DNA of 4,813 nucleotides from IMG/VR virus record IMGVR_UViG_2534682294_000008; one strand, 5' to 3'. The position numbers and the translations under genes were made by a program. Below the pieces are notes generated by a model, which was not told the origin of the DNA, searched no databases, and worked only from the letters and a program-made list of their open reading frames with translations. How positions within the stretch are numbered: position 1 is the stretch's first letter; each line of letters starts with the position of its first letter. This DNA comes from a virus (taxonomy: Duplodnaviria; Heunggongvirae; Uroviricota; Caudoviricetes). This document shows, piece after piece, positions 1 to 4,740 of this stretch.

Positions 1-285
1 GTGACTGCGCATACGGGCCACCAGCAGAGGCGGCATTGCCTTTTCGATCGCCGGTAACAGAGCCTGCATTTTTTCAACTGCATCAGGGGTGTCTTTCTCT
101 ATCCAGCGGAAAATTTTCTGGGTATTGCGAGCCAGGGCTTCCGGATGGCTGTCGTCGTACAGTTCAGGAAACGTCATACCCAACTCAAAATAAGCCTGGG
201 TTATTCCAGCTGCCGGAACTTTTTCGCCATCAGGACGCGCCCAGGCATTCATCGCCATGCGGATGTGTTCATGCTTGATTTTCAT
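1..285 (-). CDS. ydaT: YdaT-family regulator (CII-equivalent), N-terminal 95 codons only; gene continues beyond the window start
   Basis: Uninterrupted reverse-strand frame from ATG at 285..283 to position 1 (95 codons; absent from the ORF track because no stop lies inside the window). Translation begins MKIKHEHIRMAMNAWARPDGEKVPAAGITQAYFELGMTFPELYDD..., which I recognise from memory as the N-terminal signature of YdaT-type proteins of Rac/CP-933P-like prophages. G-rich RBS (AAGGGGGG) 4 nt upstream of the ATG. Lies directly downstream of, and overlapping, a Cro-like gene. Confidence 0.6.
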   Translation of the reverse strand, partial: MKIKHEHIRMAMNAWARPDGEKVPAAGITQAYFELGMTFPELYDDSHPEALARNTQKIFRWIEKDTPDAVEKMQALLPAIEKAMPPLLVARMRSH

Positions 286-511
286 GAATCCCCCCTTGGT
301 TAGAAGGCGGATTATGATCAGAATCGGGAATGACAACCGTCGGTATGTGTAACTCATATTTGAGCGCCCCGGCAGTGACTGCCTGAATTAGCAACGCCCA
401 TTTCCACGGAACGTCTTCCCCCCACATGCTGACTGTGGTTTTTGACGTTCCTAGAGCGGCGGCTGTTTTAACAACTCCGCCAAAATAGCCTAATACTTCT
501 GATTTTTTCAT
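269..511 (-). CDS. ydaS: Cro-like HTH transcriptional regulator (YdaS-type), 80 aa
   Basis: Reverse-strand ORF (track ORF 269..559) trimmed to the ATG at 511, which has a GGAG Shine-Dalgarno 6 nt upstream; the in-frame ATGs at 523 and 559 lack one. Product MKKSEVLGYFGGVVKTAAALGTSKTTVSMWGEDVPW... has the Cro/YdaS-type HTH pattern (GG..., LG.S...VS.W). Divergent from the CI-like repressor gene, as in a cI/cro switch. Confidence 0.7.
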   Translation of the reverse strand: MKKSEVLGYFGGVVKTAAALGTSKTTVSMWGEDVPWKWALLIQAVTAGALKYELHIPTVVIPDSDHNPPSNQGGIHENQA

Positions 512-602
512 GAGTCGCTCCATAAAACTGAACGCCAAAAGTTTAATAATCAAAACCAAAGAAAGTCAAGAAACAAAACCATCTGTGTTTTAAAATCAAA
601 AC
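512..602. promoter_or_regulatory. Divergent immunity control region (oR/pR/pRM equivalent) with two 16-bp operator-like imperfect palindromes
   Basis: GTTTAATAATCAAAAC (541-556) and GTTTTAAAATCAAAAC (587-602): both are GTTT-N8-AAAC near-palindromes sharing the half-site AATCAAAAC. On the reverse strand, TTGACT (564-569) -N18- TAAACT (540-545) is a plausible pR-like promoter for the Cro-like gene. On the forward strand, AAAAAT (591-596) sits 6 nt before the repressor ATG with only a weak -35. Confidence 0.5.
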
Positions 603-1241
603 ATGAACAAGCAAACAATATCTGAACGCATAACCCAACGTATGCATGCGCTAAACTTGAAAGGCAAAGACCTTGTCAATGCCACTGGCGCATCAAAAGG
701 CTCCGTAAGTCAATGGATGAACGGTGGAGGAGCGCCGTCCTCGCGTTACATAAGTTCACTGGCAAAGATATTGAAAGTAAACGAAAATTGGCTTCTTAAT
801 GGAGGAGAGTTAAATACAGGTGATTCGCTTGATCTATCTTTACCGCCGATAAAAACGGTTCCGCTACTATCACTTCAGCAGGCAGCAAGCTGGAGTGATT
901 ATATGAAAAATTCCTCAATAACCTCTTGTGTGCAGCTTGTCGGAGAAATCCCGGCCAATACCTTTGCTGTTGTTCTAGAGAGTGACAGTATGTCGACATC
1001 TGGTGGTGGAGTTTCCATCCCAAATGGTTCAACAGTTTTTGTTGATCCCGATCGAATCGTACAACCAGGAAATATTGTCCTTGCCTTACCCAAAGGGACC
1101 ACAACGCCTGTCATTCGCAAACTGGAGATAGAAGGGCCGGATATTCTTTTAGTCCCCACGAATCCTCGCTACCCTTCAATTATGCTGGATGATCTATCTT
1201 GCATATTGGGAGTATGCTTTAAAATTCAACAAGATATTTAA
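603..1241 (+). CDS. cI: Lambda CI-like prophage repressor (HTH DNA-binding N-domain plus LexA/S24 peptidase-like C-domain), 212 aa
   Basis: Track ORF 603..1241. The N-domain contains LAKILKV, identical to a segment of lambda CI as I recall it. The linker PLLSLQQAASWSDY aligns with lambda PVFSHVQAGMFSPE. The C-domain has the S24 catalytic-serine motif (E-S-D-S-M, Ser129) and a Lys (K173 in VIRKLE) at the spacing expected of the Ser/Lys dyad, followed by a lambda-like LVPTNPRYPSIML segment. No Shine-Dalgarno: the operator-like site abuts the ATG, consistent with a leaderless transcript. Confidence 0.88.
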   Translation: MNKQTISERITQRMHALNLKGKDLVNATGASKGSVSQWMNGGGAPSSRYISSLAKILKVNENWLLNGGELNTGDSLDLSLPPIKTVPLLSLQQAASWSDYMKNSSITSCVQLVGEIPANTFAVVLESDSMSTSGGGVSIPNGSTVFVDPDRIVQPGNIVLALPKGTTTPVIRKLEIEGPDILLVPTNPRYPSIMLDDLSCILGVCFKIQQDI

Positions 1242-1324: not shown

Positions 1325-1353
1325 ATTGACCTTAAATGTTCGTTTTTCTAAAC
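1325..1353 (+). promoter_or_regulatory. Candidate sigma70 promoter with overlapping operator-like inverted repeat (possible pL/oL equivalent or moron promoter)
   Basis: TTGACC (1325-1330) -17 nt- TAAACT (1348-1353). Immediately upstream and overlapping the -35 is GTTTTGATAAAAAAC (1309-1323), whose reverse complement carries the same ATCAAAAC half-site as the two sites in the cI/cro intergenic region; it is part of a 7-bp AT-rich inverted repeat AATGTTT/AAACATT (1306-1312 / 1320-1326). Confidence 0.35.
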
Positions 1354-1452
1354 TTCATTCATTCCCTCACCCCGCCCCACAGAATGCAGGGCAATACTTC
1401 GAGTTACCAGGCAGTGGTCAGGGGTTAAGTAGCCAGCCCGAGGCGTAAGAAC

Positions 1453-1686
1453 ATGACGGCAGGGTTCAACTTTAATAACTATGCAGCAGGTTTTTGTTCC
1501 GCTACCCCGGCGTTAAGGGGAAATGAGGTCAACATGGATACGCTCAATCTTGGCAACAACGAATCTCTGGTATGTGGCGTGTTCCCCAACCAGGACGGTA
1601 CGTTCACCGCGATGACGTATACCAAAAGCAAAACGTTTAAAACTGAAGCTGGCGCGCGTCGCTGGTTAGCCAGAAACACTGACTGA
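1453..1686 (+). CDS. Small hypothetical protein, 77 aa (alternative start at 1534 gives 50 aa)
   Basis: Track ORF 1453..1686. GAGG 9 nt upstream of the ATG at 1453, and GAGG 5 nt upstream of the internal in-frame ATG at 1534, so the true start is ambiguous. Stop TGA (1684-1686) overlaps the next ATG (TGATG), suggesting translational coupling with the 216-aa gene. No family recognised. Confidence 0.45.
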   Translation: MTAGFNFNNYAAGFCSATPALRGNEVNMDTLNLGNNESLVCGVFPNQDGTFTAMTYTKSKTFKTEAGARRWLARNTD

Positions 1687-2336
1687 TGAGGTTGACGATG
1701 GAATTTAAAGATTTACCTCCTTCAATCCAGGAGATTGCAGCACACACACTTCGTCATCGTCTGAACGAACTTGAATTGGAATCGGTAACGAAAAAAGACA
1801 CTGATAATATGGCTCGTAATGTGCGCGATGCGTTTACCGGATTGTATTTCTGTGCGTCTATAAATAAACACGACTCAGAGAGTGTGGCAAATAAAATTGC
1901 AGAAACGACAGCGCAAAACATCAATACGAAACCAACGGAAGAAGAAATTGATCAGTTTGCTCATGATGCTGGTTTAAAAAACAAGAAAGAAAAATCGCCA
2001 TATGCGGGGAACATGTTTGTTTATGACAATCTCATCAGAATTCGTGGCGAAATTCCGGCGGAATACCTGGCAAGAGTCCATCAGGCATTGCTTAAAAATT
2101 TGGAAACAGAATTATTTGATGGCAACACTAACGGTTTCTTCATGGTATCAGGCCTTGAGAAAGACTGGGATGCAGAAAAACGCTGGAATGTTGCTACATG
2201 GTTATTCAGTAACAGAGCCGCTGCACTGGAAGCTTCGGCATGTATTTGCGGCCTGTTCTTAACAGACCACAAATATAATCTGGATGTGTACAGTTATATT
2301 TACGCTGAACACGGTCCACTCTGGATTGACTGGTAA
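1686..2336 (+). CDS. Hypothetical soluble protein, 216 aa, unknown function (alternative start at 1698)
   Basis: Track ORF 1686..2336 with TGATG overlap to the upstream small gene. The in-frame ATG at 1698 (MEFKDLPP...) has GAGG 6 nt upstream. Long open frame in an AT-rich context with no predicted transmembrane segment and no catalytic motif I can recognise. Confidence 0.65.
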   Translation: MRLTMEFKDLPPSIQEIAAHTLRHRLNELELESVTKKDTDNMARNVRDAFTGLYFCASINKHDSESVANKIAETTAQNINTKPTEEEIDQFAHDAGLKNKKEKSPYAGNMFVYDNLIRIRGEIPAEYLARVHQALLKNLETELFDGNTNGFFMVSGLEKDWDAEKRWNVATWLFSNRAAALEASACICGLFLTDHKYNLDVYSYIYAEHGPLWIDW

Positions 2337-2546
2337 TTATAAGGAAACACCAGCAGGGCCGCGGCGACCAACAGAACGATTAAAATCAATAATGCCATTA
2401 TAAAGGACATTATTTAATTTATCGTAGAATGCTGATTCTGTGAGCCTCAACTCTGAATGAGTTTTTAATAACCCTGATTGCCTGAGTTGATTTACCAGGC
2501 ATTCAATCTGTTTTTCAATAAGCGGATTTCTTTTTTTGTTTGGCAT
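2337..2546 (-). CDS. Small hypothetical protein, 69 aa, convergent with the 216-aa gene
   Basis: Track ORF 2337..2558 trimmed to the ATG at 2546 (MPNKKRNPL...), which has a strong GGAGG 5 nt upstream. Its stop codon (2339..2337) directly abuts the stop of the forward 216-aa gene (2334-2336). No family recognised. Confidence 0.45.
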   Translation of the reverse strand: MPNKKRNPLIEKQIECLVNQLRQSGLLKTHSELRLTESAFYDKLNNVLYNGIIDFNRSVGRRGPAGVSL

Positions 2547-2589
2547 TTTATCCTCCATTGAGGTTCTGGGTTAAAAATGGAGACCAACA

Positions 2590-2960
2590 CGCTGTCACGT
2601 GTGGTCGTGCGCCGGACACGGATAAGAATCCGGTACTGACAGTTTACTGAAAGGATATTTCCCTGAAAAGTCAGTGCATAACGCGAAAGCGTACGGCGAA
2701 GCTCTTTCCCTTAGAAGGCTTGTCGTTAGATTTCTTCGAACGTGCGCTTCCGGTTGTGGCACTCCGCGAAATGGCGCGGCGGTAAGTATGGCGGGGTTAT
2801 TCCTTCCCCATTGAGGACACCGGGTTGTCAGGTTGACCATACGCTTAAGTGACAACCCCGCTGCAACGCCCTCTGTTATCAATTTTCTGGTGACGTTTGG
2901 CGGTATCAGTTTTACTCCGTGGCTGCTCTGCCGCCCTTTTTAAAGTGAATTTTGTGATGC
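2590..2960. other. GC-rich, hairpin-dense non-coding island (candidate structured RNA or regulatory/recombination region)
   Basis: No credible ORF on either strand; the only track ORF here (2595..2882, -) translates to an R/P/A-rich low-complexity product. Multiple short GC stems: CCGGA/TCCGG (2612-2633), ACGC-GAAA-GCGT (2681-2692, GNRA tetraloop), CCGCG/CGCGG (2764-2779), GGGG/CCCC (2793-2809), a 9-bp perfect inverted repeat (2822-2858), and a GC stem followed by TTTTT (about 2899-2941). Composition contrasts with the AT-rich flanking genes. Confidence 0.3.
2822..2858. repeat. Perfect 9-bp inverted repeat GGGTTGTCA ... TGACAACCC with 19-bp spacer
   Basis: Read directly: 2822-2830 GGGTTGTCA and 2850-2858 TGACAACCC are exact reverse complements. 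Could be an RNA stem-loop or a dimeric protein-binding site. Confidence 0.5.
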
Positions 2961-3034
2961 GGTGAATGCGGCTAAGCGCACGCGGAACAGTTAAAACCAA
3001 AAACAGTGTTATGGGTGGATTCTCTGTATCCGGC

Positions 3035-3055
3035 GTTAATTGTTAACTGGTTAAC
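3035..3055. promoter_or_regulatory. Tandem GTTAAY repeats (GTTAAT, GTTAAC, GTTAAC) upstream of the downstream + strand gene block; candidate regulator-binding array
   Basis: GTTAAT (3035-3040), GTTAAC (3042-3047), GTTAAC (3050-3055) at 7-8 bp spacing; the last two form the inverted repeat TTAAC-TG-GTTAA. Located about 55-75 bp upstream of the start codon at 3111. Confidence 0.25.
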
Positions 3056-3110
3056 GTCACCTGGAGGCACCAGGCACTGCATCACAAAATTCATTGTTGA
3101 GGACGCGATA

Positions 3111-3299
3111 ATGGAAACGTTATTACCAAACGTTAATACGTCTGAAGGTTGTTTTGATATTGGTGTTCTGCTCAGTAACCGGGAGTTTACTGAAGATGCC
3201 ATTAACATGAGGAAATATGAGCCTTATCTGCTCAATGATAATTCCATACTTTCCCGAATTGCTCTTCTTGAACTTGGTATTTTCGGAGAACGTCAATGA
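3111..3299 (+). CDS. Small hypothetical protein, 62 aa
   Basis: Track ORF 3006..3299 trimmed to the ATG at 3111 (METLLPNVNT...), which has GAGGA 7 nt upstream; the longer form would read through the GTTAAY repeat array. Stop TGA overlaps the next start (ATGA at 3296-3299). No family recognised; not Arg-rich, so not an N-type antiterminator. Confidence 0.5.
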   Translation: METLLPNVNTSEGCFDIGVLLSNREFTEDAINMRKYEPYLLNDNSILSRIALLELGIFGERQ

Positions 3300-3484
3300 C
3301 TTCAGCATTTGCACTGATGATGACGGTTTTTCTTATAACGGGTGAATCACAGAATGTGATTACCGGAATTTATGCCAGTAAAGAATCCTGCCTCCAGGCA
3401 AGAGACGAGCAAAAAATTTCTGGTGAATGCCTCCCGGTAAAAAAAGTATCGCTGTACCTGAATAACGAAACACCGGCTGGATAA
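3296..3484 (+). CDS. Small membrane-anchored or secreted hypothetical protein, 62 aa
   Basis: Track ORF 3296..3484 with GGAG 7 nt upstream and ATGA overlap to the preceding gene. N-terminus MTSAFALMMTVFLITG is a hydrophobic segment (signal-anchor or signal-peptide-like) followed by a hydrophilic domain with two Cys residues. Confidence 0.5.
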   Translation: MTSAFALMMTVFLITGESQNVITGIYASKESCLQARDEQKISGECLPVKKVSLYLNNETPAG

Positions 3485-3576: not shown

Positions 3577-4740
3577 ATGAGCACTGATAAAGAAGAATTT
3601 GCGCTATATTGCGAAGCAAAAAATGACAAAGTCAGAAAACGTCTGGGAATTAAAGGTGGTTTTTACTGGACTACAGCAAAAAAATTATCTGTTGCCATCT
3701 CCCGCTGCATTACCGCAATGGATGACAACGATTATGATGAAGACGACTTTAAAAAACCCGTTCGCGTCCATTTACCCGTTGTGAATGACCTTCCACCTGA
3801 AGGCGTGTTTGATACCGAATTCTGCAACCGATACGAAAAAGGCGGGGAAGATGGCATTACAATGGTATTTATCGCGCCCTCTCCCTCCGTGCAGGAGAAA
3901 CCAGCCAGTACTGACAATACCAACGTCAACGGCGAAGACATGACGGAGATTGAGGAGAATATGCTCCTGCCGGTTTCTGGTCAGGAGCTGCCCATTCGCT
4001 GGCTTGCGCAACACGGCAGCGAAAAACCAGTAACGCACGTTGCACGGGAAGAACTTCAGGCATTACATATAGCACGGGCGGAAGAACTGCCGGCTGTTAC
4101 TGCCCTGGCCATTTCTCACAAAACAAAGCTGCTCGACCCGCTGGAGATTCGCGACCTTCACAAACTGGTACGCGACACTGACAAAGTTTTCCCTAATCCC
4201 GGTAATTCAGACCTGGGACTGATAACTGCTTTTTTCGAGGCATACCTGGACGCTGACTACACTGATCGGGGTCTGCTGACAAAAGAGTGGATGAAAGGAA
4301 ATCGTGTTTCGCGTATCACCCGTACGGCTTCCGGTGCAAATGCCGGTGGCGGGAACAAAACCGATCGCAATCCGAATTTAGTACACACCTTCGATACGCT
4401 GGATGTGGAGATTGCAGCAGCCACACTTCCGATGGATTTTAATATTTATGAAATTCCGGGCAGCGTTTATCGTCGCGCAAAAGAAATCGTCCTGAAAAGA
4501 GAAAGTCCGTTCAAAGAATGGTCCGCAGCACTTCGCGCAACCCCGGGTATTCTGGACTATTCCCGCGCCGCTATTTTTGCACTTATCCGGAGCGCTCACC
4601 CTGAGTTTTATCACTACCCGGGACGCCTTCAGGGGTATATCAACGCCTACTTAACGGAGACTGATCACGAGAACCCCAGCAAGGAAACTCTCACTGCTGC
4701 ACGACATACACCGGAAAAAGATATCCTGGAAGAAGTGTAA
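3577..4740 (+). CDS. Hypothetical acidic protein, 387 aa, unknown function
   Basis: Track ORF 3577..4740, the longest ORF in the window, with GAGG 7 nt upstream of the ATG. Contains an acidic tract ([10 protein letters not shown]) and a Gly-rich loop ([11 protein letters not shown]) that does not fit a Walker A consensus. No family recognised. Confidence 0.75.

Follow-up and report, generated by a model that had tools for sequence, protein, structure and literature searches.

The window analysed here is a 4,813-nucleotide (nt) stretch of viral DNA (Caudoviricetes; IMG/VR record IMGVR_UViG_2534682294_000008), and the non-coding island at its positions 2590-2960 forms the untranslated middle of an early-left operon of the dicBF type from a lambdoid prophage of the kind carried by Escherichia coli O157, O26 and O121. 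The leader of this operon does not appear to be a passive spacer. Its 3' half, termed module B, is a conserved RNA just upstream of the small RNA (sRNA) DicF, and we favour it as an element acting in cis on read-through or processing. The probability of this whole reading is put at about nine in ten. The window was 100% identical to prophage DNA in the chromosomes of E. coli O157:H7, O26 and O121, and a match to the region was present in 4590 of 5426 complete E. coli genomes. Nothing was found that speaks against the identity of the locus. As posed, the finding of a DicF/dicBF locus is already known, and the locus itself is ordinary.

DicF is among the oldest known bacterial sRNAs. The Rfam DicF model (RF00039) matched positions 2885-2936 on the plus strand over its full length (model positions 1-52 of 52) with 75.0 bits, against a gathering score of 48, and E = 7.6e-16. 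The terminator of the RNA is formed by the arms 2899-2909 and 2923-2936, GGCGGUAUCAG...CUGCUCUGCCGCC, followed by CUUUUU; its fold has an energy of -15.4 kcal/mol and satisfies the Rfam structure line. The original prediction, which was made from the letters of the window, had described a GC stem followed by TTTTT at 2899-2941 and called it a weak terminator. The stem and the T run are present, but the call of weakness was wrong, as this is the documented rho-independent terminator of DicF. The sequence aligned with K-12 dicF (b1574) and with the DicF misc_RNA of phage Tritos, which is annotated as "DicF antisense sRNA". The 53 nt differ from K-12 DicF at a single position, 2910, where G replaces A and turns a U-A pair into a U-G pair. 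Thus a full-length model match, a 3' terminator with a U tract and a place in a prophage early operon upstream of dicB, which define a DicF RNA, were all found here. The RefSeq record of the identical O157:H7 segment (NZ_CP033605.1, 2108453-2108923) lists dicB, but the dicF non-coding RNA is not annotated in this copy, unlike in K-12.

The features of the locus in window coordinates were as follows.

269-559, minus strand: P22_Cro-type gene (Pfam and the annotated O157 record).
603-1241, plus strand: repressor gene with helix-turn-helix and S24-peptidase domains (Pfam and the O157 record).
1326-1354, plus strand: promoter-like site TTGACC-17-TAAACT, 3' of the repressor gene (consensus scan only).
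Within 1453-1686, plus strand: DUF1391 (ydfA-like) gene (Pfam and the O157 record).
1686-2336, plus strand: gene for 216 amino acids, no Pfam family (O157 record).
2337-2558, minus strand: gene for 73 amino acids, no Pfam family (O157 record).
2590-2960: the flagged non-coding island.
2606-2745, plus strand: leader module A, several hairpins (single-sequence folding).
2738-2881, plus strand: leader module B, four-helix-junction RNA (covariance model R1, 161.6 bits).
2884-2941, plus strand: DicF sRNA, with the 53-nt form at 2884-2936 and the U tract at 2937-2941 (Rfam RF00039).
2942-2964, plus strand: 5' arm of a long-range duplex (minimum-free-energy folds).
3075-3098, plus strand: 3' arm of the long-range duplex, just 5' of the dicB ribosome-binding site (minimum-free-energy folds).
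3111-3299, plus strand: dicB, cell-division inhibitor of 62 amino acids (Pfam PF05358 DicB, 125.5 bits; RefSeq dicB in the identical O157 record).
3296-3484, plus strand: DUF1482 (ydfD-like) gene (Pfam and the O157 record).
3577-4740, plus strand: N-terminal part of exonuclease VIII (RecE) (Pfam and the O157 record).

This gene order is that of dicA and ydfABC-dicF-dicB-ydfD in the Qin prophage of K-12, the leftward early operon of a lambdoid prophage. Both loci have the same untranslated leader of ~280-340 nt, the same dicF-dicB spacer, dicB and a ydfD-like gene downstream and a ydfA-like (DUF1391) gene upstream. They differ in that ydfB and ydfC are replaced here by the 216-amino-acid gene and the convergent 73-amino-acid gene on the opposite strand, with the homology block starting only at ~2606, and in that the repressor is of the S24-peptidase (LexA/CI) type rather than DicA. 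From ~2606 to dicB, the alignment with K-12 Qin and phage Tritos showed 93% mean column identity, and the conserved block began at ~2606 irrespective of the genes upstream. A mosaic joint was seen at ~2590-2606, between the region of the 216- and 73-amino-acid genes (1686-2558) and the conserved RNA block. The site at 1326-1354 is a candidate early-left (dicBp-type) promoter for the whole operon, its position after the repressor gene matching that of dicBp after dicA in K-12. The dicB gene begins 170 nt downstream of DicF and can be expressed only from transcripts that pass the DicF terminator. A long structured leader of a small downstream gene had been among the proposals for the island; the leader is indeed long, and the gene it precedes is dicB, with its 62 amino acids at 3111-3299.

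The composition and folding of the island also fitted a structured RNA. As described in the original prediction, the G+C content was higher than that of the flanks (0.525-0.535 in 200-nt windows over 2601-2900 versus 0.365-0.44 on both sides), the GNRA hairpin ACGC-GAAA-GCGT was found precisely at 2681-2692, and more than six hairpins appeared in the minimum-free-energy fold of 2600-2945, where at least six stem-loops had been claimed. The energy of this fold was -126.8 kcal/mol, compared with -109.1 +/- 5.7 kcal/mol for 100 dinucleotide shuffles (z = -3.1, 0 of 100 as good), and the fold of 2600-3115 reached z = -5.05. The absence of a credible open reading frame was confirmed as well: only a 95-amino-acid frame on the minus strand (2595-2882) and short frames on the plus strand were present, none with a Pfam match. 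That minus-strand frame, together with the hypothetical proteins annotated over the homologous stretch in several phage records, might suggest a decayed protein-coding gene or inert foreign DNA, but we give this explanation next to no probability. No Pfam match was found, no frame was open throughout the homologues, the insertions and deletions were not multiples of three, with the spacing between invariant anchors varying from 43 to 49 nt, and the substitutions preserved base pairs, including G-U pairs that fit the plus strand only. A relic of inserted foreign DNA, which had been proposed for the island, is further contradicted by the 93% identity of the block to Qin and Tritos, its presence in 4590 of the 5426 genomes and its constraint by RNA pairing; nor was there any sign of the degraded coding gene named as the counter-reading.

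The suggested search with Infernal against Rfam identified the 3' end of the island as full-length DicF, while in Rfam 15 the stretch 2590-2890 had no match at E <= 10 on either strand. BLAST against phages divided this stretch into two modules, A at ~2606-2758 and B at ~2753-2875. Module A contains the hairpins CCGGA...UCCGG, a long CUGAC...GUCAG and the GNRA hairpin at 2681-2692; in phage phiSTEC1589-Stx1c, which encodes N, it is present while module B is absent. Module B forms a four-helix junction on the plus strand, the elements of which are given below.

2753-2760 with 2860-2867, plus strand: P0, the closing stem.
2764-2768 with 2775-2779, plus strand: P1, a short hairpin.
2780-2783 with 2819-2822, plus strand: P2, outer part.
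2793-2796 with 2806-2809, plus strand: P2, inner part, a variable hairpin.
2823-2830 with 2850-2857, plus 2831-2833 with 2843-2845, plus strand: P3.
2834-2842, plus strand: apical loop of P3, UGACCAUAC, near-invariant (position 7 is A or G).

Conservation of this structure is supported by compensatory changes in its helices, as found by the comparison across relatives that the original prediction had proposed; its candidate structured non-coding RNA thus turned out to be the DicF sRNA (Rfam, 75 bits) and a covarying module upstream of it. Instances of module B were collected by pattern scans of IMG/VR and GTDB genomes and reduced to 24 non-redundant sequences (alignment A3), with the helices partly taken from RNAalifold; a second alignment (A4) holds 75 distinct sequences aligned to the covariance model. 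In A3, 95.3% of the cells were paired, compared with 35-60% when the helices were slid, and 10 pairs showed double changes, compared with 0-4. The values for A4 were 97.4% versus 35-60% and 11 versus 1-2, and with neither alignment was any of 500 shuffles as good. Four consecutive P3 pairs are changed in Izhakiella, GGGUAACCA...UGGUUACCC versus GGGUUGUCA...UGACAACCC in E. coli, and all of them are still paired. GCCA/UGGC of phage P1 versus GUCA/UGAC of the window is another compensatory change, and the inner stem of P2 occurs as GGGG/CCCC, CUGGG/CCCAG, CAGGUG/CACCUG and AGGG/CCCU. The frequent G-U pairs of the module fit the plus strand only. Eight of the nine positions of the P3 loop are fixed, and this loop and the junction sequences are conserved from E. 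coli to Erwinia, Izhakiella and P1. By eye, the P2 loop UCCUU was complementary to a downstream GAGGA in some variants (UCCUU/AAGGA, CUCC/GGAG), which would allow a pseudoknot, and this complementarity was absent from others.

Covariance model R1, built for module B, scored 161.6 bits on the window copy and found no match in the early region of HK022 or in the N-encoding relative. By chance alone, the 17 specified bases of the GTDB pattern scan would give about 70 hits, and the hits obtained were vetted with R1. The confirmed hosts were Enterobacterales only: E. coli, E. albertii, E. ruysiae, Shigella, Citrobacter, Trabulsiella, Erwinia tracheiphila and Izhakiella, plus a few metagenome-assembled genomes apparently contaminated with E. 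coli. Near-identical E. coli-type dicF-region sequences were also seen in records of unrelated hosts, namely GTDB metagenome-assembled genomes labelled Bacillota, Veillonella, Proteobacteria and Collinsella (L175, L179, L184, L188), the 'Actinobacillus' phage PP818812 and Aeromonas phage AP1 (MT713136); these copies probably reflect contamination or mis-assignment. We found no description of module B in the literature searched, outside which lay several older papers that might mention it. Module B is thus a conserved, covarying four-helix RNA of ~145 nt that belongs to no Rfam family and is apparently undescribed.

Module B was present in phages without an Rfam DicF match at E <= 0.01, including cdtI, 2H10, Salmonella phage F1055, 'Actinobacillus' phage pPE4 and P1/P7. 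For 134 of the 143 instances there was downstream sequence to examine, and a terminator hairpin with a U run followed in all 134, starting ~15-70 nt after P0 (111 called by a scan; the other 23, with cdtI-type or Erwinia-type hairpins, identified by reading the sequences). UUGGCGG...CCGCCCUUUUU was the commonest kind of terminator, and that of P1 was GCCCAUCUUCGGGUGGGCGUUUUUU. The spacer between P0 and the terminator varied among the instances, as did the terminator loop, and both look like alternative sRNA "seeds" on a shared frame. In pPE4 (L009, 2600-2790), the spacer, terminator and post-terminator arm were tandemly duplicated, giving two identical terminators 93 nt apart. Phage 2H10 has the order cI terminator, a good promoter as read from the sequence, a leader of ~265 nt, module B, terminator, a long inverted repeat and the first gene; its genome holds one copy of module B, with none in the rightward operon, and no annotated N. 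Module B of cdtI and pPE4 lies in the same gene-free gap after the repressor gene, and in the window it lies ~1.4 kb from the candidate promoter. On the minus strands of 2H10 (L010, 38-226) and cdtI (L005, 40-228), Rfam C4 antisense RNA was matched (83 and 68 bits) beside isrK (55 and 60 bits). With C4 as well as module B, both phages thus have two P1-type RNA elements in common with P1.

Phage P1 itself has an annotated "dicF-like region" in the ban leader (NC_005856, 68791-68892). There, module B (R1, 100.5 bits) and an intrinsic terminator come right after the C1-controlled Pban promoters (L004, 2479-2654). Unlike the window, P1 has no Rfam DicF match at E <= 0.01, and the closing stem P0 is not conserved. 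Judged from these sequences, the annotation "dicF-like" reflects helix P3 of module B and the position of an unrelated terminator, not a DicF RNA.

In K-12, the locus yields an RNA of ~53-72 nt that is produced by RNase E and RNase III and represses ftsZ (PMC5069750). The 53-nt form has an RNase E-dependent 5' end and terminates at the rho-independent terminator (PMC5069750), and the 72-nt form is an RNase III product of the full-length transcript (PMC5069750, PMC9438474). The same papers describe the long untranslated region of the dicBF operon and the several DicF copies of O157 strains. Because Plac placed at the head of the K-12 dicBF operon gives DicB-dependent phenotypes (PMC6832061), the DicF terminator is read through without a specific promoter or a lytic phage. 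With the processing steps and targets carried over from this literature, transcription in the window would start at the promoter 3' of the repressor gene and pass through the ydfA-like gene, the 216-amino-acid gene and the ~280-nt leader (2606-2881), after which most polymerases would reach the intrinsic terminator at 2899-2941. Terminated transcripts would be cut by RNase E at ~2884 to give the 53-nt Hfq-binding DicF, and read-through transcripts would include dicB and the genes downstream. The 23 nt right after the U tract (2942-2964) pair with 3075-3098 in minimum-free-energy folds, and a 72-nt DicF starting at 2884 would end at 2955, inside this predicted duplex, which is a candidate RNase III site from which the 72-nt form would be cut out of read-through transcripts. 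DicF would pair with the ftsZ, manX, xylR and pykA mRNAs and, in enterohaemorrhagic E. coli (EHEC), with pchA mRNA.

The same duplex is the outer stem of a fold that covers the dicF-dicB spacer, with three hairpins inside it and the dicB ribosome-binding site at its end. The stretch 2934-3143 matched the whole Rfam model of STnc100 (RF02076), a gammaproteobacterial sRNA, including its outer long stem. However, the score of 34.7 bits is below the gathering score of 47, the match lies mostly outside the flagged interval, and the element here is a spacer within an operon rather than a free-standing gene. K-12, Tritos, pPE4 and phiSTEC1589 also have this weak STnc100 match in the corresponding position, and P1 has a partial one (L004, 3842-3961).

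P0 ends 16 nt upstream of the DicF 5' end. The reading that we favour is that module B may act in cis, either on the decision to terminate or read through or on how the transcript is processed at the neighbouring terminator and RNase E site. Several observations weigh against it. Each genome segment examined held one copy of module B, and none lay in the rightward early operon. A number of relatives, found via the conserved post-terminator arm (L202, L211, L011, L217 and ~25 other IMG/VR loci), keep the 5' flank GUGCGCYUCC and P0 but lack P1-P3, P0 being closed by a GAAUA or AAAUA pentaloop. Phage LLS (L237, 31933-32096, minus strand) shares the flank, P0, the terminator and the post-terminator stem with this locus but has a different insert of ~110 nt in P0, to which R1 gave a score of only 23.8 bits. 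Since such relatives and LLS exist, module B is dispensable for a DicF-type sRNA and its operon. In addition, no alternative pairing between module B and the terminator stem was found. Attenuation through competition of module B with this stem was considered, as GGCGGUA is shared with the 5' arm of the terminator, and rejected, because the P1 terminator lacks this sequence and no convincing alternative helix was found. P1-P3 thus resemble a block of ~100 nt inserted into the apical loop of a conserved hairpin, P0, which behaves like a platform for exchangeable RNA inserts.

Alternatively, the leader might be a scaffold for the biogenesis and stability of RNA, with P0 and its optional insert marking the boundary of the RNase E cut and then shielding the 3' end of the upstream mRNA from exonucleases. 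We hold this to be possible, although not probable. P0 ends 16 nt before the mapped 5' end of DicF, which is RNase E-dependent (PMC5069750), and faces an A/U-rich single strand (GUUAUCAAU|UUUCUGG); P0 and the flank GUGCGCYUCC are kept with and without module B and in LLS; and the stretch from P0 to the terminator, spacer and seed, is free to vary, which would fit different sRNAs sharing one processing frame. Likewise, SroC, CpxQ and MicL, sRNAs derived from 3' untranslated regions or from within operons, are made by early rho-independent termination and RNase E cleavage on the 3' side of a stable hairpin (PMC9438474). The guiding hairpin of the window differs from theirs by an insert of ~100 nt whose three helices are conserved and whose loops are near-invariant, more than processing alone would require. 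A plain hairpin would be enough for a scaffold, and the near-invariant 9-nt loop of P3 and the conserved junctions, which point to a specific partner, would be left unexplained. Furthermore, the P1 module starts ~15-35 nt after the predicted transcription start, where there is no upstream mRNA to be protected or to be released from. Module B could instead be a put-like processive antiterminator that is independent of protein, the nascent RNA binding RNA polymerase and carrying it past DicF and later terminators, which would account for early read-through in N-less lambdoid phages and P1 ban; on balance, this is unlikely. The put sites of HK022 (putL and putR, cis-acting and binding RNA polymerase) are structured RNAs in the early-left transcript of an N-less lambdoid phage and lie upstream of terminators that early genes must pass. 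Module B has a comparable place in 2H10 and P1, after an early promoter and before a terminator in a phage without N, and several relatives share the promoter-proximal position. In agreement with this, module B always lies close upstream of an intrinsic terminator that downstream genes must pass; it occupies a gene-free gap after the promoter in 2H10, which has no annotated N, and the same gap after the repressor gene in cdtI and pPE4; and in P1 the annotated Pban promoters precede it and a terminator follows, with the tRNAs and ban further on. A tblastn search with lambda N and Stx-phage N found no upstream N homologue in any of the 86 loci with module B (those with at least 2.5 kb of upstream sequence, including the window copy with ~2.9 kb), compared with 2 of 23 loci without it, but this comparison is weak, as only two N seeds were used, N proteins are diverse and many of the loci without module B are rearranged Rac-like remnants. 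An RNA mechanism has already been suspected by specialists for N-less relatives such as LLS, a phage without N that perhaps has a put-like RNA (PMC12315714), and Plac-driven transcripts do reach dicB in K-12 (PMC6832061). Nevertheless, module B has no sequence relation to put and forms a four-helix junction of ~115 nt rather than the two stem-loops of ~70 nt in put (PMC9378689). It occurs in a single copy per phage, with none in the rightward operon, and is optional among close relatives. The same terminator is tolerated by relatives without module B and by LLS with its different insert, and a partly leaky terminator would suffice, K-12 being reported to have both terminated and read-through products. 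Membership in the put family itself was rejected: BLAST with putL found HK022, HK75, HK639, phiEt88 and others but no phages with module B, the put sequences being a separate BLAST family, and R1 was blank in the early region of HK022. A bolder form of the same idea is that module B represents another family of cis-acting RNAs, unrelated to put, by which RNA polymerase becomes terminator-resistant, perhaps together with the GUGCGCYUCC flank, P0 and the promoter-proximal hairpins of the LLS type, with DicF-type sRNAs as a by-product of unmodified polymerases. We regard it as speculative and quite unlikely; if true, it would explain early gene expression past a strong terminator in N-less lambdoid phages of Enterobacterales and in the P1 ban operon.

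Two further explanations have lower probabilities. Module B might be a trans-acting domain, either part of an sRNA of ~190-200 nt (module B, seed and terminator) or a decoy for a protein or RNA, with DicF as its processed 3' piece. This is improbable, although promoter, module B, spacer and terminator follow one another in P1 like a separate, C1-controlled RNA gene of ~190 nt and the near-invariant loops suggest a binding partner. No stable RNA of ~190 nt from the locus was reported in the literature searched, and module B is optional among close relatives. CACAACA, the consensus of GcvB R1 targets (PMC4104026), is exposed at the 3' strand of P0 in many variants, but it is absent from the window copy, which reads GCUGCAAC, and lies inside a helix. 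Far less probable is a nut site for an N-type antiterminator, composed of the boxA-like GUGCGCUUCC at 2742-2751 and a boxB, for which the similar-looking CCCUGAAAA at 2661-2669 and P0 would be the candidates. Some variants have UGCUCUUU or UGCUCUCU at the boxA-like place, which resembles the boxA of rrn and lambda, and the P0 of relatives that lack module B, five base pairs capped by a GAAUA or AAAUA pentaloop, is shaped in outline like a boxB. However, no N gene was detectable with Pfam among the open reading frames of the window, the boxA-like segment is only 1-3 nt from P0, and in the one N-encoding relative the N gene lies 1.5 kb upstream of the site, which is not the position of nutL. Its conservation may have another reason, as the boxA-like segment can pair with AAGCGCACG at 2974-2982. 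The original prediction had noted a CCCTGAAAA string resembling the 5' half of lambda boxB; the string is present, at 2661-2669 and one base off the position given, but the resemblance does not hold, as CCCUGAAAA has no complementary arm in the window or in the commonest, K-12-like variant. Several relatives read the hairpin-forming CCCUGAAAAGUCAGGG at 2661-2677, where the window has CAGUG and the K-12 type CAGAC, so that the arm exists in a minority of variants only. Thus the nut/put-like element, one of four options that had been listed without naming the locus, is neither a nut site nor a member of the put family. A cis action of module B on read-through or processing remains the reading that we prefer.

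Some other features of the leader were observed beside these. The segment CGUGCGCUU (2741-2749) can form 9 bp with AAGCGCACG (2974-2982), beyond the terminator, and this pairing would cross the duplex of 2942-2964 and 3075-3098, giving a pseudoknot topology. The cdtI class keeps the pairing as GUGCUCU/AGAGCAU; within classes there was no compensatory change, and a few variants of the DicF class break it. In some relatives the sequence CCCUG-AAAAGY-CAGGG was considered as a boxB and rejected, since its loop has 6 nt and is not the pentaloop of boxB. Many variants (e.g. L009, L122 and L098) carry CCACAACA(A) at the 3' strand of P0 and in the spacer, which matches the GcvB R1 consensus CACAACA (PMC4104026). 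An anti-sRNA of the AgvB/AsxR type was rejected as well, since such RNAs lie in the moron site downstream of PR' and not here (PMC4104026). In many relatives (LLS, L237 at ~32255-32225 on the minus strand; L016, L142, L202 and L006, among others), the leader begins with ACCACC..GCCUG..GUGGU.AAAAG.CAGGC, a potential H-type pseudoknot, and in LLS this start comes directly after the early-left promoter. The Rac-like class has GCCCGG...CCGGGC at the second helix of the pseudoknot, an apparent compensatory change, and the first hairpin of the window leader differs from it, reading CUGAC...GUCAG.

The practical value of these results is a correction of annotation, as the RefSeq record of the identical segment lists no dicF. 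Beyond this, an RNA of 145 nt with compensatory changes and near-invariant loops is present in most E. coli genomes and in phage P1 without having an Rfam family. It always lies just upstream of the terminator that decides whether the sRNA alone is made or also dicB/kil, the recombination genes and xis. If module B controls that decision, it would bear on how N-less lambdoid phages pass their early terminators and on the control of DicF output in EHEC, in which the sRNA contributes to virulence regulation.

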